DNA of 41,265 nt from a phage: the sequence record NC_107013.1, one strand, 5' to 3'. The position numbers were made by a program, and so were the translations under genes. The notes below the pieces were generated by a model. The model made no database searches. It saw nothing but the letters and a program-made list of their open reading frames with translations, and had not been told where the DNA came from. Positions 3,253-41,265 of this stretch are shown in pieces (position 1 is the stretch's first letter; each line of letters opens with the position of its first letter).

Positions 3253-4499
3253 GTATTCAGCTATCCGCACCGCAGGCACTGTTCCTGAATTGCGATAACA
3301 AATACAAAGCCTATGTCGGCGGCTTCGGCAGCGGAAAGACATTTGTTGGCTGCCTTGACCTGCTTACGTTTATGCTCAAGCATCCAGGTACGCGCCTGGG
3401 TTACTTCGGCCCGACATACCCGGCTATCCGTGACATCTTCTACCCGACATTTGAGGAAGCCGCTAACCTGCTCGGCCTCGATGTGCTGGTTAAATCTGGC
3501 GACAAAGAAGTCGTGGTTACTCGCGGTAAGACGGTGCTCGGTACAGTTATCTGCCGTTCTATGGATAACCCAGGCTCGATAGTCGGCTTCAAAATCGCTG
3601 CTGCGGTCGTGGATGAGCTTGATGTATTGAGCCGTGAGAAAGCTGAGCTGGCGTGGAACAAAATAGTCGCCCGTATGCGTCTGGTTATCCCCGGCGTAAC
3701 TAACCACATCTCTGTCACCACGACACCGGAAGGGTTCAAGTTCGTCTACGCCAAGTTCAAAGAGAACCCGACGCCGAGTTACTCGATGGTGCAGGCTTCT
3801 ACACACGAGAACGCGCGATTCCTGCCGCCTGACTACATTAGCTCACTGACCGAGACTTACCCCGCGCAACTGATTAACGCGTACCTGAACGGTGAGTTCG
3901 TTAACCTGACATCCGGCAGCGTGTATTATGCGTATGACCGTCGCAAGCACCGCAGCAAAGAGACAATTCAACCGGGCGATACACTGTACATCGGGCAGGA
4001 CTTCAACGTTACGAAGAACGCCAGCGCCGTGTATGTGCAACGTAAAGACGGCTGGCACGCGGTGGCAGAACTGAAAGGTCTGTTTGATACGCCGGACACC
4101 GTGCGTGTAATTACTGAGAAGTGGAAGTCGCAGGGCCACCGCATAGTCGTTTACCCGGACGCCAGCGGCAAGAACCGCAAGACCAACTCGGCGTCAATCT
4201 CAGATATTGCGTTACTCCAGCAGGCCGGTTTCGATGTTCGCGCTAAATCCGCCAACCCTCCGGTTAAAGACCGTGTTTTAGCCGTGAATACCGCACTGGA
4301 AAAAGGTAAGCTGTGGGTTAATGACCACTTATGCCCTGAGATAGCGAAGACGCTGGAGCAGCAGGCATACGATGATAACGGAGAGCCAGCTAAAGACGGC
4401 ATCATTGACCATATGGCGGATGCTCTCGGCTATCCTGTAGTTTACGAGATGCCGGTGGTTAAACCAGTAATCAACATCCCGGTGACTTTCGCACTTTAA
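3249..4499 (+). CDS. terL: Terminase large subunit
   Basis: Walker A-like VGGFGSGKT near N-terminus; 416 aa; followed by portal. Confidence 0.8.
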   Translation: MSIQLSAPQALFLNCDNKYKAYVGGFGSGKTFVGCLDLLTFMLKHPGTRLGYFGPTYPAIRDIFYPTFEEAANLLGLDVLVKSGDKEVVVTRGKTVLGTVICRSMDNPGSIVGFKIAAAVVDELDVLSREKAELAWNKIVARMRLVIPGVTNHISVTTTPEGFKFVYAKFKENPTPSYSMVQASTHENARFLPPDYISSLTETYPAQLINAYLNGEFVNLTSGSVYYAYDRRKHRSKETIQPGDTLYIGQDFNVTKNASAVYVQRKDGWHAVAELKGLFDTPDTVRVITEKWKSQGHRIVVYPDASGKNRKTNSASISDIALLQQAGFDVRAKSANPPVKDRVLAVNTALEKGKLWVNDHLCPEIAKTLEQQAYDDNGEPAKDGIIDHMADALGYPVVYEMPVVKPVINIPVTFAL

Positions 4500-6014: not shown

Positions 6015-6036
6015 AGCCCCGAAAGGGGCTTTCTTA
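6015..6036 (+). terminator. Internal hairpin terminator/attenuator between portal and head morphogenesis genes
   Basis: AGCCCC-GAAA-GGGGCT then TTCTT; same hairpin as at 7584-7604. Confidence 0.45.
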
Positions 6037-7117: not shown

Positions 7118-7578
7118 TGATGGGCTTTTTCAAAGTAACTGATGTACCGTCACGTCGCGTAGTCCAGTACGCCCGCGTGTCTGGCTCTGGTGAGAACGTG
7201 GTGTTTATTGATGATGAAAGTGTACTCGGTACACCCGAAGACGATATGCCGTTTGCAGATAAAACCGGTATTGCGTTACCCGCGGCGGGCATGCTTTATG
7301 AAATTCCGTATCTGGCGGATGCAGGTGACGTGTATTTCTCGGTGCAACCGAAAGACACCGAGCTGGTCGACGGTAGCGCCACCATCACCGTCGAAGTTAA
7401 GGCGGGTAAAGCGCCGTGTGTACTGACCTGGTACAAAGACGGCAAGGAAGTGGTAAACGCCCCAGAAGAGGCTTTGTCTCTGACGGTTAATGCTGTCGGT
7501 GAATACTTCGTTAAAGTCACCGATGCCGATGGGGTAGAGGCCGTAAGTAAAGCAGCGAAGGTTACTAAGCCAGAATAA
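7117..7578 (+). CDS. Virion-associated protein with Ig-like C-terminal domain (putative)
   Basis: TAATG coupling to upstream gene; beta-rich C-terminal segment. Confidence 0.4.
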   Translation: MMGFFKVTDVPSRRVVQYARVSGSGENVVFIDDESVLGTPEDDMPFADKTGIALPAAGMLYEIPYLADAGDVYFSVQPKDTELVDGSATITVEVKAGKAPCVLTWYKDGKEVVNAPEEALSLTVNAVGEYFVKVTDADGVEAVSKAAKVTKPE

Positions 7579-7583
7579 ACTGA

Positions 7584-7604
7584 AGCCCCGAAAGGGGCTT
7601 TTTA
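7584..7604 (+). terminator. Rho-independent terminator
   Basis: AGCCCC-GAAA-GGGGCT hairpin followed by TTTTT. Confidence 0.65.
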
Positions 7605-7667
7605 GTGCCTGTGATTATTCCAGTTATTCCACTCAATTGTAAATGTTGGAATAAACTATTCGAATAG

Positions 7668-7696
7668 TTGACTTTTCACCAAAAATGTGCTAAGCT
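7668..7696 (+). promoter_or_regulatory. Sigma70-like promoter TTGACT-N17-TAAGCT (TG-extended -10), copy 1; overlapped upstream by the 16-bp palindrome AACTATTCGAATAGTT
   Basis: Same -35, -10 and spacer length as the promoter at 38053-38081. Confidence 0.55.
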
Positions 7697-7699
7697 CCA

Positions 7700-7810
7700 C
7701 CTGAGCTTGTGAAGTATGAACAAGCGACCGCGGCGCGGGCAGGTAACGGAGCGGGACGTAAGTCCTGAGTGTAGTTACGCTGACGCGTTCGGAAGGGCCA
7801 TACTCTATTG
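7700..7810 (+). ncRNA. Conserved promoter-proximal element, copy 1 (candidate small RNA or cis-acting leader)
   Basis: 5' 34 nt identical and 3' ~33 nt nearly identical to 38085-38197; conserved GCUUGU/ACAAGC hairpin; no conserved reading frame. Confidence 0.4.
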
Positions 7811-7875
7811 CTTGTGTAAAAAGTAACTGGTTTACTGAGATTACGCCGTTTCTATGTTTAAATGATAAGGACTAG

Positions 7876-7905
7876 CGCCCCGCTTTAAGGCGGGGCTTTA
7901 CTTAT
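7876..7905 (+). terminator. Intrinsic terminator/attenuator downstream of element copy 1
   Basis: GCCCCGC-TTTAAG-GCGGGGC hairpin then TTTACTTAT. Confidence 0.45.
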
Positions 7906-7920: not shown

Positions 7921-8307
7921 ATGAATCTTAAAGCAACTGTCGTAGCGGGAGCATGTTTCATCATCCTGGCTTACGCACACGGCATCTACCAGTATCGCAG
8001 CGGCTGGAACGGAGGCCGGGCGAATCTCGTTTCTCAGCAACAGCAGAAAGCACAGGCTGAGTTAGCTAAGAAAACACAACGGCAGCAGCAGGATGAATCG
8101 AAGGCCGCCGCCGCTGATAACGAAGGCAAGACGAAATCAGAGGTAATCACCCGTGAAGTCGTTAAGTACATTAAAACGCCTGGCCGCAGCGTGTGCACTT
8201 TTGACCCTGAGCGCGTGCAGCTCAAGTCCCGCGCCGTCGCAAACGCCAATTCCATCCCCGGATACGACGATGATGCAGCCGCCGTGCAAACTGGCACTGC
8301 CAAGTAA
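7921..8307 (+). CDS. i-spanin (Rz-like): N-terminal TM, Gln/Ala/Lys-rich predicted helix, periplasmic Cys
   Basis: GAAAGGGG RBS; TM VVAGACFIILAYAHGIY; Rz-like architecture; contains an overlapped lipoprotein gene. Confidence 0.6.
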   Translation: MNLKATVVAGACFIILAYAHGIYQYRSGWNGGRANLVSQQQQKAQAELAKKTQRQQQDESKAAAADNEGKTKSEVITREVVKYIKTPGRSVCTFDPERVQLKSRAVANANSIPGYDDDAAAVQTGTAK

Positions 8308-10116: not shown

Positions 10117-10139
10117 AAAGGGGCTTCGGCCCCTTTTTA
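10117..10139 (+). terminator. Strong rho-independent terminator after the capsid gene
   Basis: GGGGC-TTCG-GCCCC hairpin plus TTTTT. Confidence 0.7.
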
Positions 10140-10155
10140 CTAGGAGAAATTAAAG

Positions 10156-12716: not shown

Positions 12717-13883
12717 ATGGCTACAACTCCTTTTAAGGGCGCGAATACTGCGCAATTCTATGTGGCAGAAACTACCCCCGGCGTAACACCGACTAACCCG
12801 GTCTGGTCGCCATTGCGTAACACAGGTGGCGTTCCTGCCATTACCCGCGACACGCTGACCTCCAACGAACTGGACGGCAGCCGTGAAACTACGTCAATCC
12901 GCACCGGTAACAAGCAGGTTAGCGGAGAATACGCTATTGAGCTTAGCTCGAAAAGCCAGGACGACTGGCTGGCGGGTGCTTTAGGCTCTACATGGCAATC
13001 CGGTAGTTCTCTGACCGGGCTATCAATTACCGTCGCGCCTGCAGGCAAGACCTTTACCCGTGCCGAAGGTAGCTTTATTTCTGACGGCGTTGAAGTGGGC
13101 GACCTGATTGCGTTTACCGACTTAACCGGTGACAACGCAAAACCGTTTATCGTAACTGCAGTAGAGGCGCTGGTAGTGACCGGGGCGGGTATCCAGCATA
13201 CCCTGACCACAGAGACAGTAACTACCGCCGCTAAGACAGGGGATAAACTGGAAACGGGAAGCCAGTGCAAGACGTTCTCTATTCTCACCTGGTACAAAGG
13301 CCAGTGCGGCGGGACTGACGCGTACACACTAACCAAAGGCGTGGAAGTTTCTGGTTTTACCATCGAACAGGCTGTTAACGCTATGGTAACTGGCAGCTTC
13401 CCGTTCATCGGTCGCAGTCAGGAGATTCTCACCACGCAGCCGTCTGGTTCTGATTTCTCCTCTGTTACGTTTGGTGACGAGCCATTCTCCTCGGTCGATG
13501 TTTCTGTGTTCGACGGTTCTACGCCGTTGCGTTGCGACAGCCTGACCATCACCAACGACAACAGCGCGTCCGCACAGTTCGAACTCGGCAACACTAACGT
13601 AGCGTTTGTGGAGCGTAGCCGAGCAGCTAACACCTTCTCCATCTCCGGTAAGCTGTACGACATGGCGATGATTCAGAAGTTTATCAACGAGCAGCAGGTG
13701 GAGATTAACTCTATTCTGGCTGGGGTAAACGGGGCTATGTCTTTCAGTTTGAAACGTGCAGAACTTACGGCGGTTACACCTGAGATTGGAGGACCTGAGT
13801 CAATCACTCAGTCTATTGAAGGTCAGGCTACTGGCAACCAGTACCAGTCGTCTATTGTTATTCAGCGTATCACATACGCATAA
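12717..13883 (+). CDS. Major tail protein (putative)
   Basis: AGAGG RBS before ATG 12717; Thr/Ser/Gly-rich 389-aa ORF at the expected position. Confidence 0.55.
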   Translation: MATTPFKGANTAQFYVAETTPGVTPTNPVWSPLRNTGGVPAITRDTLTSNELDGSRETTSIRTGNKQVSGEYAIELSSKSQDDWLAGALGSTWQSGSSLTGLSITVAPAGKTFTRAEGSFISDGVEVGDLIAFTDLTGDNAKPFIVTAVEALVVTGAGIQHTLTTETVTTAAKTGDKLETGSQCKTFSILTWYKGQCGGTDAYTLTKGVEVSGFTIEQAVNAMVTGSFPFIGRSQEILTTQPSGSDFSSVTFGDEPFSSVDVSVFDGSTPLRCDSLTITNDNSASAQFELGNTNVAFVERSRAANTFSISGKLYDMAMIQKFINEQQVEINSILAGVNGAMSFSLKRAELTAVTPEIGGPESITQSIEGQATGNQYQSSIVIQRITYA

Positions 13884-13887
13884 AACT

Positions 13888-13912
13888 AAGGCCCCGTTTG
13901 GGGCCTTTTTCT
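13888..13912. terminator. Bidirectional terminator at a convergent junction
   Basis: GGCCCC-GTTT-GGGGCC hairpin flanked by A-run upstream and T-run downstream; near-identical to 26459-26484. Confidence 0.65.
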
Positions 13913-16366: not shown

Positions 16367-16381
16367 GTAATGTGATAGAAT
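16354..16381 (+). promoter_or_regulatory. Putative promoter (TTGGGG-N16-TGaTAGAAT) for the tail operon, back-to-back with the minus promoter
   Basis: TG-extended -10; location upstream of the chaperone/tape-measure genes. Confidence 0.3.
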
Positions 16382-16474
16382 AAGTTTGCGCCTAGTGTCG
16401 CACACGAAAAGCGGGTGGTTCCCGTCTGGCGCATTTATCGTTAACCTGTAACCTCTTAACCAAAGGATTAAAGA

Positions 16475-23500: not shown

Positions 23501-26455
23501 ATGTCAAGCGGATGCGGTGACGTTTTAAGCCTGGCGGATTTACAAACCGCCAAGAAACATCAGATTTTCGAGGCCGAGGTTATCACTGGCAAATCCGGCG
23601 GTGTCGCCGGTGGTGCCGATATTGATTACGCGACAAATCAGGTTACTGGACAGACGCAGAAGACACTCCCCGCCGTGTTGCGTGACGCAGGTTTTAAACT
23701 GGCAGATTTTGATTTCACGTCAGGCGGTACACTATCCGCTAACGACCGAAACACCGCAGTTTTGTGGCCGTCGTCCTCTGGCGGTGACGGGGATTGGTAC
23801 TATTGGTTGGGTGCTCTACCAAAAATTATCCCAGCGTCATCTTCTCCGCAGTCCACCGGTGGCGTGGCAGATGGGGCGTGGCAGCCTGTCGGGTCGGTCA
23901 TACTGCGGCAGCAAATATCTGATGTAAACGGCGCAATTCTGTACCCAGATTTACATGTGGCGCGATGGAAGGACGAATACGACCCGCGCGCATGGGGCGC
24001 CGTGGGCGACGGCGTAACTGATGATACTCAATCTATTTTTAATGTATTAGCAGCTTCCCCCAACAATTGGATTATAGACGGCAGGGGTTTGACTTATAAA
24101 GTTTCCCAATTACCTGACATTAGTAAATTTAAGAATGCTGCATTCGTTTACGAGCGCGTAGCCGGGCAACCGCTTACTTATGTAGCTGATGGCTTCTTTA
24201 ACGGCTCACTAACTAAGGTGACGGATACCCCGTTCTACAACGCATGGACGCAGGATAAAACTTTCGTCTACGACCATGTTATTTACGCCCCGTTTATGGC
24301 GGGCGAACGACATGGTGTTCAAAACTTACATGTAGCTTGGGTTCGCTCTGGAGACGACGGGCAGACTTGGTCAATGCCTGAGTGGTTGACTCCAATCCAT
24401 GCTGACTATAATGCTAGTGTTTCTACGGACAGAGTTAACTACCACTGCATGAGCATGGGTACGTGCGGCAACCGATTATATGCAGTTATAGAAACCCGCT
24501 ACTTATCTAATATGCGGATGAAGAAGGCAGAACTTTGGTCACGCCCAATGCCGTATTTTAGACACCCAACCGGCGGAATAACTATTAGTTCTGGCTCCAC
24601 TACTGCTACCATTGTCATAGAAAATCATGGCCTAAAAGCAGGAGATGCGGTTAACTTCTCTAATACATCGGCAACTGGCGTATCGGGTAATATGACGGTT
24701 TCGTCTATAATTAACCGAAATACGTTCACTGTTACGCTCTCAAGACCGGCGAGTTCCACCATAAACAATGCGGGTGTTACCTGGAACTTCGCAACGCGAT
24801 TCTGGGACAGCCCGTGGGAAATTACCGAATTGCCTGGGGTAGCATACTCCACTAACGCTGATTTGTGTGTCACGGAGACACATAGTTTTGCGGTTATAGA
24901 TGATGTTAACTACACTATCGCTGTCGGCTATCACAACGGCGATGTGTCCCCTAGGCGTCTCGGTGTCTTGTATTTTAGTAACGTGTATGACAATCCTGGC
25001 GTATTCGTTCGTCGCACTGTCGCTCAGGCATACGCTGATAACGCTTCTGAGCCGTGCGTGAAAAGCTATGGTGGTGTGTTATACCTTACCACACGCGGCA
25101 CATTACCTACTTCCCCTGGCTCTACACTGGCGATGAGCACCGATTCTGGGCAAAACTGGAGCTACTTGCGATTTCCGAACAATGTACATCACTCCAATCT
25201 TCCGTTCGCTAAAGTAGGTGACTATCTCTACATCTTTGGTACAGAACGTGCCTTTGGTGAGTGGGAAGGTGGCGAGCAGGACAGCCGCTATGAAGGTTCG
25301 TATCCGAGGACCTTTATGTGCAAAGTTAATGTGTCGTCATGGCCTTCATCTTTAGATGATGTTCAGTGGTTTAATATTACCGACCAAATATACCAGGGTC
25401 ATATCGTTAACTCTGCTGTCGGCGTCGGCTCGGTCTGTGTTAAAGATGGCTGGTTGTACTATATCTTTGGTGGGGAAGACTTCTTCTCTCCCTGGAGCAT
25501 AGGGGATAACAGTGCGAAGTTATGGTACAAACATGATGGGCATCCGGCTGACTTATATAGCTACCGGATAAAGATTGAAGACCACCCGTACGTATCACGT
25601 GATTTCAAATACGGAGCAACTCCTAACCGTACAATACCTGTCGCCATGGGGGTAGATGGTGTACGCCATGTAGAAGCACCTTTAACGTTTGACAATGATG
25701 TAAGCGTGTACTCCCTGCATGTAACGGGGCTGGAATACGATGGTACACAACAGTCTGCCGTGCGCGCACGGTTTGATGGTGATTACGGGCTGATTTCAAA
25801 AACAGTCCCCACTAAAACCCCATCGAGTCAAAGACTGATAGTTAGCGGTGGTGATGGTGCATCCAGTTCCGATGGTGCGTTGCTGCAACTGTACGGGGCA
25901 AACCATGCAAAGCCTAACATGGCTATTATGTATGCGTCAGGAGGCTTCTACTCATACAACAATTTTCTTCCTTACTTAGACTCGCAAGTGTCTTTAGGTT
26001 CGGCAGGTAATAGGTGGACTACGGTGTACGCGACCACCGGTACGATAAACACGTCTGATGGTACACTTAAGACGAACAAAGAGGAAATTGAGGGACAACT
26101 CCTTACCGCATGGGAGGATATACATGTAATATCTTTTAAGTGGCTTGAAAGCCTAGCAATCAAGGGTGACACTGCAAGGATACACTTCGGTGTGATAGCC
26201 CAAGATGTGCGAGACATCTTGGTCAACCATGGGCTTATGGAGAAAGATTCTACCGATTGTAAATATGCTTTCTTGTGCTACGACTCAATTGAAGCTGCGT
26301 ATGATATTGATGAAGATGGCCAGACTGTACAAGTATCCCCTCCCGGCGGCAGATGGGGGGTTAGGGCGGACCAGATGTTCTTCATAGAGATTGCCTATCA
26401 GCGTAAGAAGATGCGCGAGTTCGAGAAGAGGCTGGCAGCACTAGAAGATAAATAA
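23501..26455 (+). CDS. Tailspike: endo-N-acetylneuraminidase (endosialidase)-like with C-terminal intramolecular chaperone (peptidase S74) domain
   Basis: Two Asp-box motifs (SGDDGQTW, STDSGQNW); many segments matching my recollection of K1F endosialidase; C-terminal TSDGTLKTNK and ARIHFGVIAQ typical of S74 domains. Confidence 0.8.
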   Translation: MSSGCGDVLSLADLQTAKKHQIFEAEVITGKSGGVAGGADIDYATNQVTGQTQKTLPAVLRDAGFKLADFDFTSGGTLSANDRNTAVLWPSSSGGDGDWYYWLGALPKIIPASSSPQSTGGVADGAWQPVGSVILRQQISDVNGAILYPDLHVARWKDEYDPRAWGAVGDGVTDDTQSIFNVLAASPNNWIIDGRGLTYKVSQLPDISKFKNAAFVYERVAGQPLTYVADGFFNGSLTKVTDTPFYNAWTQDKTFVYDHVIYAPFMAGERHGVQNLHVAWVRSGDDGQTWSMPEWLTPIHADYNASVSTDRVNYHCMSMGTCGNRLYAVIETRYLSNMRMKKAELWSRPMPYFRHPTGGITISSGSTTATIVIENHGLKAGDAVNFSNTSATGVSGNMTVSSIINRNTFTVTLSRPASSTINNAGVTWNFATRFWDSPWEITELPGVAYSTNADLCVTETHSFAVIDDVNYTIAVGYHNGDVSPRRLGVLYFSNVYDNPGVFVRRTVAQAYADNASEPCVKSYGGVLYLTTRGTLPTSPGSTLAMSTDSGQNWSYLRFPNNVHHSNLPFAKVGDYLYIFGTERAFGEWEGGEQDSRYEGSYPRTFMCKVNVSSWPSSLDDVQWFNITDQIYQGHIVNSAVGVGSVCVKDGWLYYIFGGEDFFSPWSIGDNSAKLWYKHDGHPADLYSYRIKIEDHPYVSRDFKYGATPNRTIPVAMGVDGVRHVEAPLTFDNDVSVYSLHVTGLEYDGTQQSAVRARFDGDYGLISKTVPTKTPSSQRLIVSGGDGASSSDGALLQLYGANHAKPNMAIMYASGGFYSYNNFLPYLDSQVSLGSAGNRWTTVYATTGTINTSDGTLKTNKEEIEGQLLTAWEDIHVISFKWLESLAIKGDTARIHFGVIAQDVRDILVNHGLMEKDSTDCKYAFLCYDSIEAAYDIDEDGQTVQVSPPGGRWGVRADQMFFIEIAYQRKKMREFEKRLAALEDK

Positions 26456-26458
26456 AAC

Positions 26459-26484
26459 TAAGGCCCCAAACGGGGCCTTTTCTC
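26459..26484. terminator. Bidirectional terminator at a convergent junction
   Basis: AGGCCCC-AAAC-GGGGCCT hairpin; same stem as 13888-13912 with complementary loop. Confidence 0.65.
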
Positions 26485-29077: not shown

Positions 29078-29362
29078 CTAACTATAATAGCTAGCTATTA
29101 GGTCGTCAACCTGTTTAAACGAACCAACGACAAAAACATTTGCACCGCGTTTACGCATACGCTCATGCTCTCGTAACTGGTGCGGGTCAGGCTTCGTGTT
29201 TTCGTCTTTCTTAACCTCGATAAACCAGACGATGCCGCCGGGGAGAATTACCAGTAGGTCTGGAGCGCCGGAACGCCCCTCATAAGACAGTTTACGAACG
29301 AGGCCGCCAATGGCCTCGAATCGCTCTTTCGCGTATTTCTGAATCTTGCCTTCCGGGGTCAT
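29078..29362 (-). CDS. VRR-NUC domain nuclease (PD-(D/E)xK)
   Basis: Motif PDLLVI...IEVK; ATG at 29362. Confidence 0.6.
   Translation of the reverse strand: MTPEGKIQKYAKERFEAIGGLVRKLSYEGRSGAPDLLVILPGGIVWFIEVKKDENTKPDPHQLREHERMRKRGANVFVVGSFKQVDDLIASYYS
29081..29109 (-). promoter_or_regulatory. Class I early promoter TTGACG-N17-TATAGT with palindromic operator AATAGCTAGCTATT in the spacer
   Basis: About 20-bp shared core with promoters at 32635-32663 and 34772-34801. Confidence 0.5.
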
Positions 29363-32581: not shown

Positions 32582-32634
32582 CGTGATTTCTCGCTTTTCA
32601 GTTTACTCCGGGAACTGCCCGGCCAGTGATTAGA

Positions 32635-32663
32635 ACTATAATAGCTAACTATTCAGGTGTCAA
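32635..32663 (-). promoter_or_regulatory. Class I early promoter TTGACA-N17-TATAGT with AATAG-N4-CTATT operator
   Basis: Core AACTATAATAGCTAACTATT identical to 34772-34791. Confidence 0.5.
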
Positions 32664-32667
32664 CACT

Positions 32668-34740: not shown

Positions 34741-34771
34741 TTGTTTCTCTCCTCTCGTTTGGTATATGCTA

Positions 34772-34801
34772 ACTATAATAGCTAACTATTCATGTTGTCA
34801 A
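34772..34801 (-). promoter_or_regulatory. Class I early promoter with AATAG-N4-CTATT operator (18-bp spacer variant)
   Basis: Core AACTATAATAGCTAACTATT identical to 32636-32655. Confidence 0.5.
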
Positions 34802-34865: not shown

Positions 34866-35081
34866 ATGCAACCATCTGAACTAGGTATCCGTGTAGAGCA
34901 ACGCCGTAAAGAACTCGGTATCTCCCAGCGCCATCTGGCTGTCCTGGCCGGTGTTTCCCAAGGCGCGATTAACCAGCTGGCACTTGGGGTAACTCAGGAC
35001 GTCCGCCCAGCGACGCTGTTTAAACTGGCGGAAGTGCTGCAAGTAGACGCCAAGTGGCTGGCGTTGGGTGAAGGGGCTTAA
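34866..35081 (+). CDS. XRE-family (Cro/CI-like) HTH transcriptional regulator
   Basis: LGISQRHLAVLAGVSQGAINQL helix-turn-helix; AAGGAG RBS; own terminator. Confidence 0.7.
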   Translation: MQPSELGIRVEQRRKELGISQRHLAVLAGVSQGAINQLALGVTQDVRPATLFKLAEVLQVDAKWLALGEGA

Positions 35082-38052: not shown

Positions 38053-38081
38053 TTGACTTTTACTGAGAAATATGGTAAGCT
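38053..38081 (+). promoter_or_regulatory. Sigma70-like promoter TTGACT-N17-TAAGCT (TG-extended -10), copy 2
   Basis: Same -35/-10/spacer as 7668-7696. Confidence 0.55.
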
Positions 38082-38084
38082 CGT

Positions 38085-38197
38085 CCTGAGCTTGTGAAGT
38101 ATGAACAAGCGACCGCGGTGCGCGGCAGGCGAAACGAGCACGTCTCGACGTGTGGAGTGAGTCTCGCTGACGCATTCGGAAGGGCCATAGTCTATTG
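38085..38197 (+). ncRNA. Conserved promoter-proximal element, copy 2 (candidate small RNA or cis-acting leader)
   Basis: Paralogue of 7700-7810 with identical 5' 34 nt and conserved 3' block. Confidence 0.4.
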
Positions 38198-38268
38198 TAA
38201 TTCCCGCCTAAATATCTAAGTTACTGATTTGCCGTGGGTTATATCCGCAAGCTCACTCACTCACTCTT

Positions 38269-38302
38269 GGTGCCTTCGGCACCACGTTCGTTTCGTTTCG
38301 CT
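38269..38302 (+). terminator. Intrinsic terminator downstream of element copy 2
   Basis: GGTGCC-TTCG-GGCACC tetraloop hairpin then T-rich tract. Confidence 0.45.
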
Positions 38303-38350
38303 CGCTATCCCATTAAACTAAAGAACCACAACGGCAACGTAACTAATCTC

Positions 38351-38379
38351 TTGCACGCCCCAACATAATAGGATACTAT
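38351..38379 (+). promoter_or_regulatory. Class II promoter TTGCAC-N17-TACTAT with conserved spacer
   Basis: 33-bp near-identity with minus-strand promoter at 16338-16366. Confidence 0.5.
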
Positions 38380-38413
38380 TCACTTATCGAAACGAGACAG
38401 AGGAGTGAGGGTT

Positions 38414-38602
38414 ATGTTTAAGAATGGTCAGTTGGTTAAAGCTGTAAATAGCTATTATTGTGTTGTTGAAAGAGAGTCTGTCGTTTTTCTCGGAACTTAT
38501 AGGGTGCGTTTTCTCGGGAAAAGATTAGGCGCGGTAGATTGGTTCCGTGAAGACGAGCTAACACTCATCGGCAACAATTTTAAATTCAAAGGGGCGAAGT
38601 GA
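38414..38602 (+). CDS. Hypothetical protein (62 aa)
   Basis: GAGG RBS before ATG 38414. Confidence 0.5.
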   Translation: MFKNGQLVKAVNSYYCVVERESVVFLGTYRVRFLGKRLGAVDWFREDELTLIGNNFKFKGAK

Positions 38603-38802
38603 TGGAAGAATTATTTGAAGAACTGAAACATCATGATTTCGAGGAAATATATTTCGTAGCTGAACGCTACGAGGTGCATTTATCGGACGGGATTACAATT
38701 ATTACGATGGATAGCCAGCAAATGCTAAATAGCTTACAGGCAATCAAAACGGCATCGAATCGTGATGCTTGTGCCGACGACTCTGAGGGAGGTTGCCGTT
38801 AA
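38602..38802 (+). CDS. Hypothetical acidic protein (66 aa)
   Basis: TGATG coupling; AAGGGG RBS. Confidence 0.45.
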   Translation: MEELFEELKHHDFEEIYFVAERYEVHLSDGITIITMDSQQMLNSLQAIKTASNRDACADDSEGGCR

Positions 38803-38981
38803 TGCGAATCCGTATAACTGACCGCAGGCTTGTCCGTATAACTGACCGCAGGCTTATAGATTTCGGTATCTCGGTAGGTGATGTTTTTCCGGCGTTCAGC
38901 ATCAACCATTATGGTTTTATGATTGAGTACAAAGGGTCGTTATTGTTCGTGTATCGGGATGAATGTGAGGTTCTGGTATGA
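38802..38981 (+). CDS. Hypothetical protein containing an in-frame 8-aa duplication (RITDRRLV / RITDRRLI)
   Basis: TAATG coupling; ORF spans the 24-bp tandem repeat. Confidence 0.4.
   Translation: MRIRITDRRLVRITDRRLIDFGISVGDVFPAFSINHYGFMIEYKGSLLFVYRDECEVLV
38809..38856 (+). repeat. Tandem direct repeat, 2 x 24 bp (TCCGTATAACTGACCGCAGGCTT[G/A])
   Basis: Two adjacent copies differing at one position. Confidence 0.85.
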
Positions 38982-40947: not shown

Positions 40948-41256
40948 TTGGATAAATTTACTGAAACAGTGACAGGCTGGCTTCTCGCTGCCGCACTAGC
41001 CGGAGGGGTCATCGGCCTACGACAACATAAGTCCGTTATTTCTGGCCCTATCGACGGCTTTTGCTTCATTGCAACTGGCTTCACTTGCGCCGTATTTGGT
41101 GCGCCTCTCGCGGCTCAATGGTTCGGTATTACCGGTGAGCGTGAAATCGCGGGCCTGGGCTTCATTATCGCTGTTCTCTGGATGCCTATCTATTCCCGCC
41201 TCTCCGGTATCGTCGCCGGAGAATACATCGCACGTCGAGGAGGCCCGGATGAATGA
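40948..41256 (+). CDS. Holin (about 3 predicted TM segments), TTG start
   Basis: GGAGG RBS 7 nt before TTG; three hydrophobic segments; immediately upstream of holin 2 and endolysin across the wrap-around. Confidence 0.6.
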   Translation: MDKFTETVTGWLLAAALAGGVIGLRQHKSVISGPIDGFCFIATGFTCAVFGAPLAAQWFGITGEREIAGLGFIIAVLWMPIYSRLSGIVAGEYIARRGGPDE

Positions 41257-41265
41257 ATTATTCTG

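Follow-up and report, generated by a model that had tools for sequence, protein, structure and literature searches.

Two diverged copies of an RNA element of roughly 110 bases are encoded on the + strand of the genome of a virulent, K1-specific E. coli siphovirus, each directly behind a promoter and upstream of a hairpin and a set of genes. The element is a structured RNA, which has been conserved and, together with its promoter, modularly duplicated within the phage subfamily Guernseyvirinae. By analogy with known systems, we tentatively propose that it represents a new class of promoter-proximal leader RNA, which would make RNA polymerase resistant to terminators with or without the help of a phage factor. 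Whatever the mechanism, the element constitutes a well-supported new phage RNA family, which is currently mislabelled as 'hypothetical protein' in annotation.

The stretch of DNA that was analysed (the window, 41,265 bases) is a complete Kagunavirus genome of about 41 kb. Its region of interest is 97% identical to Escherichia phage vB_EcoS_fKuEco01, the annotation of which was used as the gene map. As the genome does not carry an RNA polymerase gene of its own, the host enzyme has to transcribe everything. An exact direct repeat of 127 bp (1-127 and 41139-41265) is most simply taken as the assembly overlap of a circularly permuted, headful-packaged genome. Near-identical GGCCCC/GGGGCC terminators are located at the ends of major operons (7574-7603, 13880-13909 and 26452-26481).

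Two promoter-linked copies of the element

The two copies of the element (copy 1 and copy 2) and their surroundings comprise the following features.

7656-7696, + strand: copy-1 promoter, with the palindrome CTATTCGAATAG (7656-7667), the -35 TTGACT (7668-7673), TGC and the -10 TAAGCT (7691-7696)
7703-7810, + strand: copy-1 leader RNA element
7877-7905, + strand: terminator GCCCCGC-UUUAAG-GCGGGGC plus UUUACUUAU, with an 8-bp stem of -17.2 kcal/mol
38053-38081, + strand: copy-2 promoter, with the -35 TTGACT (38053-38058), a 17-nt spacer and the -10 TAAGCT (38076-38081)
38088-38197, + strand: copy-2 leader RNA element, consisting of P1, the long P2/P3 hairpin and the conserved 3' tail AAGGGCCAUAGUCUAUUG
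38090-38110, + strand: P1 hairpin GCUUGU[GAAGUAUGA]ACAAGC, six pairs, starting at +3
38113-38179, + strand: P2/P3, a long irregular hairpin with the lower stem CCG.GGUGCG.../...CGCAUUCGG
38198-38253, + strand: A/U-rich spacer, with residual homology to copy 1 in the alignment (AAGTTACTGATTTGCCGT at 38218-38235)
38254-38265, + strand: (TCAC)3 microrepeat, read directly
38270-38302, + strand: hairpin GGUGCC-UUCG-GGCACC plus the tail ACGUUCGUUUCGUUUCG, with the stem-loop at 38270-38285 (MFE -12.9 kcal/mol)
38351-38379, + strand: second promoter, TTGCAC-17-TACTAT, predicted to drive the rightward early genes (start about 38405-38415)

All features that the initial annotation had placed between 38053 and 38302 are present, with coordinates within 1-2 bases of those given here, and the separate promoter at 38351-38379 was found as well. 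The copy-1 and copy-2 promoters are paralogous and combine the same hexamers with the same 17-nt spacer, as had been noted (TTGACT/TAAGCT at 7668-7696 and 38053-38081); the hexamers are kept in all variants. The spacer of the copy-2 promoter ends in TGG, an extended -10, and transcription would start at G38088. Promoters and start sites were derived from the sequence: a consensus promoter scan missed the copy-2 promoter because its -10 matches TATAAT at just 3 of 6 positions, and the strength of the promoter would rely on the near-consensus -35 and the TG of the extended -10.

The transcribed parts share a 5' block of 34 nt, CCTGAGCTTGTGAAGTATGAACAAGCGACCGCGG, which is identical between 7700-7733 and 38085-38118 (two matches, against 0.00 expected in shuffled sequences). 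The earlier description of conserved 5' and 3' blocks with a different centre agrees with two repeat families between the copies, D2 (70 nt, 86% identity) and D9 (38 nt, 89% identity), which are separated by a divergent middle. The similarity is far beyond chance, as had been argued, and the 'different centre' proved to be the tip of a hairpin carrying compensatory changes, which is strong evidence for a functional RNA. The notion of paralogous promoter-element-terminator units had to be narrowed: promoter and transcribed element, from the -35 to about +150, are paralogous, but spacer and hairpin are not common to both.

In the spacer behind copy 2, the junction with other leader types falls at AAGTNACTGAT. 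The (TCAC)3 microrepeat was recovered as described; three units precede the hairpin in most relatives and six in sequence L040 (about 4360-4385), and the repeat behaves as a slippage-prone spacer, with a length polymorphism typical of strand slippage. The hairpin that follows was correctly recognized, with a good stem of 6-7 bp and a UUCG loop, but the U-rich tail that had been assigned to it is a poor U-tract: no U is present in the first 3 nt past the stem and the U run is interrupted. A permissive terminator scanner accepted the hairpin; a strict definition would not. Because the first U comes late and the U run is interrupted, this structure would be a weak intrinsic terminator at best. 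The hairpin is kept in variants A and B, and a different hairpin is present in variants C and E. The claim that the copy-2 transcript ends as a discrete RNA of ~210 nt is weakened accordingly by its dependence on this hairpin, which is swapped elsewhere for one without an adjacent U-tract. Further downstream, an exact 23-nt tandem duplication, TCCGTATAACTGACCGCAGGCTT, is located at 38809-38831 and 38833-38855 (spacing 24) within a small ORF (38793-38981).

At the copy-1 locus, the order is an upstream terminator (7583-7600), the palindrome, the promoter, the element, an A/U-rich spacer and a terminator (7877-7896 followed by UUUACUUAU). The palindrome is perfect over 12 bp and abuts the -35, with its centre at about -41.5; it is unique in the genome, conserved at copy-1 loci and missing at copy 2, and is a likely binding site of a dimeric regulator. 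The terminator is invariant across the copy-1 loci examined. The Rz-like spanin gene starts 16 nt past it, at 7921, and the genes for scaffold, capsid, connector and tail tube come next. The sole promoter between the upstream terminator and the capsid operon is the one at 7668, and no promoter was found for this operon 3' of the terminator at 7877-7905, which means that the most highly expressed genes sit behind a terminator. A second strong terminator, AAAGGGGC-UUCG-GCCCCUUUUUA (10117-10140), is present just past the major capsid gene, and about 10 more genes follow it with no promoter between. From the copy-1 promoter to the terminator, the leader RNA element is the only conserved feature. 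Conservation of the copy-1 spacer, from -80 to +220, is above that of both flanking genes, and the element is kept even though the downstream capsid module varies between genomes, the capsid type of the window reaching at least 90% identity in just about 20 records.

The initial annotation had put the two copies at the heads of both rightward gene blocks. This does not hold, as copy 1 lies inside the structural block, between the head-decoration and the spanin/capsid genes, and no copy of the element is found in the third rightward block, which carries the tail genes from 16475. The operon of these genes has a leader (16378-16445), 3' of a TGATAGAAT-type promoter, in which a closing stem encloses two hairpins (-19.2 kcal/mol, z -1.0); it is unrelated to the leader RNA element. 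In the leftward replication block, a motif of 25-31 nt, AACTATAATAGCTA(G/A)CTATT, is present in three copies (29080-29110, 32634-32664 and 34771-34795). On the - strand, each of these copies reads as a promoter of the TTGACA type with a near-perfect palindrome, TAATAGCTAGCTATTA, inside it, which looks like an operator; one of them adjoins a gene for a DicA-like repressor (34866-35081).

Fold and covariation of the RNA

Relatives of the element were gathered by exact and degenerate pattern scans of IMG/VR and metagenomes and with a covariance model built from the element, R1, resulting in a collection of 89 copies with 40 distinct sequences. Copy 1 scores 139.1 bits against R1 and copy 2 105.6 bits (E 5e-24). 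P1 is 100% paired in the 40 variants; the changes in its stem are solely from A to G, yielding U.G wobbles, and variant E has a new loop on a stem that was kept. The distance between promoter and P1 is invariant, and the duplicated module always has the promoter. The internal loops of P2/P3 include a conserved GAGUG, and the hairpin ends in the P3 tip, CACGU[CUCG]ACGUG at 38139-38152, for which five unrelated sequences were found, each able to pair.

In a model-based alignment of the 40 variants, standard pairs occupy 95.2% of the 1,123 pair cells, against 29-45% when the partners were slid by 1-3 columns. Compensatory changes, affecting both sides, were observed at 7 pairs, four of which are in P3; pair 32-95 occurs as CG, UA or AU and pair 43-83 as UA, AU or GC. 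The covariation score was 0.201 versus 0.084 ± 0.006 in shuffles, none of the 500 of which reached 0.201, in a counting alignment that was partly fitted to the covariance model itself and in a narrow family in which the covariation derives from a modest number of independent events; a plain MAFFT alignment gave the same covariation picture. The copy-2 element has an MFE of -40.4 kcal/mol on the + strand versus -29.0 on the - strand. The better folding of the sense strand, by about 12 kcal/mol, is a consequence of conserved G.U pairs. About 55 positions of the element are invariant across Escherichia and Salmonella phages.

Several other structures and functions were considered and rejected. 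A protein-coding small ORF is annotated here in some GenBank records, and the frame that starts at the ATG of the P1 loop stays open for 36 codons in copy 1 and for 19 in copy 2; the variants differ by indels that are not multiples of three (1 and 2 nt, at alignment columns 35-36, 44, 62 and 84), for which reason a coding function was dismissed. Pseudoknots between CAUAC of the 3' tail and GUAUG of the P1 loop, or between GAGUG and the 3' tail, were discarded because the partner positions vary without compensation. An alternative P1, in which ACAAGC would pair with a second GCUUGU at +108, is seen in copy 1 alone, and an antiterminator pairing with the terminator arm is not kept between copy 1 and copy 2.

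Distribution and modularity

Using blastn, the element was found in 180 phage records, at 222 places in total; all of these records are Guernseyvirinae of Escherichia, Salmonella, Raoultella or Shigella. The copy-1 form (7703-7810) is present and near-invariant in all 180 of them, including the Salmonella Jerseyviruses, and copy 2 in about a quarter. A metagenome scan with a degenerate pattern returned Guernseyvirinae contigs and two chance hits, with no more-distant relatives among them. No chromosome matched among 5,426 E. coli genomes, on which ground a host origin of the element was rejected. The sole 'plasmid' match, CP088689.1 (H71; 44,086 bp, with two copies of the element), was deposited as an E. 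coli plasmid, and we take it for a Kagunavirus genome.

The initial annotation had asked for a comparison with relatives and had named the lack of one or both copies at unchanged gene order as refuting its reading. For copy 2, this is what was observed: K1ind2 and FSL SP-101 do not carry copy 2, yet their gene order is that of the window. The Klebsiella phage VLCpiS11a, a distant member of the Guernseyvirinae, has neither copy. At the copy-2 site, K1ind2 and FSL SP-101 have another promoter, another leader of ~300 nt and another hairpin, after which the same conserved second promoter follows, with ~60 nt around it conserved. Irrespective of the leader in front, the second promoter and about 30 nt 5' of it (GAATCACAACGGCAACGTAACTANTCTCTTGCAC.CCCCAACATAATAGGATACTAT) are kept in both Kagunavirus and Jerseyvirus, as was seen at 38320-38380 of the window, 35420-35490 of L084 and 36050-36115 of L085. 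In VLCpiS11a (L086, 35660-35935, - strand), the spacer 5' of the spanin gene has five or six TTGCGAG repeats, possibly a different regulatory or promoter motif.

Copy 2 occurs in at least five centre variants, which are joined to two unrelated downstream halves. In the 44.6-kb contig L042 (2220-2332), the variant C centre of copy 2 is found at the copy-1 locus, an arrangement that suggests gene conversion between the paralogues. A 5.2-kb metagenome contig (L050, 2133-2245) has the upstream gene and promoter of copy 1 joined to the copy-2 element and the early genes, which would be explained by a chimeric assembly across the ~65 bp that both copies have in common or by a genuine rearrangement. 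From these sequence comparisons, promoter and element together are best described as a portable cassette, with copy 2 as a replaceable and dispensable module.

Possible function and relation to known systems

In the antitermination reading, host sigma-70 RNA polymerase would start at the strong TTGACT/TGnTAAGCT promoter, with the element as the 5' leader of the transcript. The emerging RNA would fold into the short P1, from +3, and then into the long irregular P2/P3, and this nascent RNA would act in cis on its own polymerase, alone or with a phage or host factor. Modified in this way, the polymerase would pass the hairpin terminator 60-70 nt on and subsequently the later terminators of the operon. 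This would turn on the spanin gene and those for scaffold, capsid, connector and tail tube at the copy-1 site; at the copy-2 site, terminator-resistant polymerase would reach the rightward genes for early functions, lysis and packaging. Both the antitermination and a contact with the polymerase are what we infer here by analogy.

Antitermination is favoured because the layout of copy 1 matches that of HK022 PL-putL and of lambda PR'-6S-tR'. The covariation of the RNA fold, the fixed distance between promoter and P1, the terminator at 10117-10140 and the conservation of the spacer also argue for it, as does the finding that no Q-like or N-like protein was recognized among 20 small proteins. Across genomes, the element is coupled with three different, unrelated downstream hairpins, which fits a terminator-independent (processive) mechanism and disfavours a pairing switch of the riboswitch type. 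Other observations argue against antitermination. Copy 2 is dispensable and one phage of the Guernseyvirinae lives without any element; the poor U-tract after copy 2 may leave little to antiterminate at that site; and the AAGUAU of the P1 loop, -10-like as in putL, is lost in variant E. In addition, an internal terminator (6015-6030) is also present in an operon without the element, so that partial read-through may be the norm in this genome. A stricter version of the proposal, in which the element would be a second, structurally unrelated RNA-only processive antiterminator, a leader of ~110 nt that binds the E. coli/Salmonella polymerase itself, so that virulent siphoviruses would drive their capsid operon with a portable promoter-plus-RNA cassette, is by analogy conceivable and in our view rather unlikely.

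The same arrangement could yield a discrete, stable sRNA of about 200 nt with P1 at one end and the terminator hairpin at the other. Acting in trans, such an sRNA could, for instance, titrate a host protein or a defence system as a decoy or sponge, and the downstream genes would be served by leaky read-through only. We consider this doubtful. Promoter, RNA and hairpin indeed span sRNA-like distances, from 7703 to about 7905 (~200 nt) and from 38088 to about 38302 (~215 nt), and the idea is attractive for copy 2 in view of the separate promoter of the genes that follow. The whole copy-1 spacer is conserved, including its A/U-rich part and the terminator, and other noncoding leaders occupy the copy-2 site elsewhere, as would be expected of interchangeable RNA genes. 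At copy 1, however, the capsid operon, with no later promoter, would need a leak through a terminator of -17 kcal/mol. Moreover, what the copies have in common is the 5' 110 nt only, spacer and hairpin being different, and no target complementarity was identified.

An element that sets the lifetime of the late mRNA through RNA stability or processing is unlikely. Stabilizers at the 5' end require that a terminal hairpin begins no more than 2-4 nt from the start, as in the ompA 5' UTR, and RNase III sites are present in the T7 early mRNAs and the lambda N leader. P1, beginning at +3, could accordingly shield the 5' end from RppH and RNase E, and the ~30-bp P2/P3, a long helix with internal loops and a tip of freely varying sequence, could be an RNase III site. 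Such hairpins and sites tolerate change, yet the element has the 55 or so invariant positions mentioned above, and the terminator between the element and the genes would be left unexplained.

It is quite improbable that the conservation between -35 and +35 reflects a DNA signal, namely the recognition site of a late phage antiterminator that binds promoter DNA in the manner of lambda Q, with an incidental RNA fold and with P1 as a possible operator centred at +13. The region from -35 to +28 is near-invariant at the DNA level, GCTTGT-N9-ACAAGC is a DNA inverted repeat as well, and lambda PR'-6S-tR' has the same succession of promoter, ~200 nt, terminator, and genes for lysis and head. Against this, P2/P3, with its compensatory changes and its conserved G.U pairs, and P1, with U.G changes only, carry signals at the RNA level that would not be expected of a DNA site, no Q-family protein was detected when 20 small proteins were scanned, and variant E does not have the candidate pause hexamer. 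A riboswitch or attenuator, with an aptamer sensing a metabolite or an ion and controlling the downstream terminator, would have the classic order of promoter, conserved structured RNA, terminator and genes but is very improbable, as Rfam gave no match at E up to 10, the terminators lie 60-70 nt past the conserved fold and are nonhomologous between copies and variants, and inspection revealed no conserved alternative pairing between element and terminator.

If antitermination by the RNA alone holds true in this large group of virulent E. coli and Salmonella phages, RNA-mediated antitermination would be a recurrent solution, and a new interface with RNA polymerase would become available for structural work. 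To our knowledge, put RNA, which is found in a few lambdoid phages, is the only phage RNA that reprograms bacterial RNA polymerase without proteins. Such antitermination would also explain how late genes are switched on in phages without a polymerase, a sigma factor or a recognizable antiterminator. Many phages of the group that carries the element are used in phage therapy. The cassette of promoter and element would, in the same case, be a compact part with which synthetic operons could be insulated from terminators.

No description of the element was found in the literature on transcription in Kagunavirus, Jerseyvirus, Guernseyvirinae and MB78 or on put and antiterminator RNAs. The only RNA-seq study of a Kagunavirus reports timing classes at the gene level and nothing on intergenic RNAs (PMC12645636). 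A search of Rfam 15, at the gathering threshold and at E up to 10, gave nothing but two meaningless hits to eukaryotic lncRNAs. EAR RNA of the Bacillus eps operon and the LoaP and conAn leaders are likewise structured leader RNAs with processive antitermination in long operons; they belong to other phyla and to operons of cells or conjugative elements, and no Rfam model matched the element.

As with nut and N of lambda and P22, a leader hairpin near the promoter could bring a factor to the polymerase during elongation. By inspection, no boxA consensus (CGCUCUUA or UGCUCUUUAACAA) is present in either copy; the best boxA-like stretch, with 8 of 13 positions, occurs in copy 1 alone and is missing in copy 2. 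BoxB of nut is a 15-nt hairpin with a GNRA-like pentaloop, whereas the P1 loop has 9 nt (or 6-8 nt). The element is about five times the size of a nut site, and no arginine-rich N-like protein was identified. The likeness to lambda PR'-qut-6S-tR' lies in a constitutive-looking sigma-70 promoter, ~200 nt of noncoding sequence and a terminator, followed by lysis and head/tail genes. Lambda Q works through DNA and a sigma-dependent pause and does not need an RNA structure, unlike the element, in which the RNA fold covaries. AAGTAT (NANNAT, -10-like), which spans +10 to +15, is the same in most variants and is replaced by GAGATATC in variant E; by chance alone, a match to NANNAT would arise about once in 64 positions. 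When 20 proteins that are small or regulatory were scanned against PHROGs, no Q-like, N-like or other antitermination family was recognized; most of these proteins fall in families of unknown function, and the element may therefore have a protein partner.

The closest parallel is with the polymerase-utilization sites putL and putR of phage HK022, which act without phage proteins, by way of the zinc-binding domain of the beta' subunit of RNA polymerase, and suppress distant terminators (PMC9378689). HK022 putL was extracted using a primer published in that paper, with which the numbering agrees, putR was located by alignment, and a model, R2, was built from both. R2 recovers putL and putR at 87-95 bits and has no match at 7703-7815 or 38088-38200 at E up to 10; conversely, R1 does not match putL or putR. 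No match between the element and put was obtained with blastn-short, and Smith-Waterman scores were 24 and 22 (shuffle mean 19 ± 4). The one match of R1 in HK022 (16.8 bits) is on the PR' promoter, 5' of the start site, and is regarded as spurious. With models tested in both directions, homology to put RNA was ruled out, and as a consequence the mechanism proposed here is an argument by analogy. The put RNAs are ~74 nt long, compared with about 110 nt for the element, with its one short and one very long hairpin. HK022 is a lambdoid phage and the carriers of the element are virulent and non-lambdoid, and put is located at an early operon, in contrast to the universal copy of the element, copy 1, which heads the late (capsid) operon. 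What the element shares with putL and putR is the presence of two stem-loop units, from +2/+3, just 3' of a strong promoter and 5' of terminators (terminator-like hairpins lie 60-70 nt past the fold in both copies), the occurrence of two diverged paralogues per genome, and a setting in which no dedicated antiterminator protein is recognizable. The likeness of the element to put is one of logic and not of ancestry.
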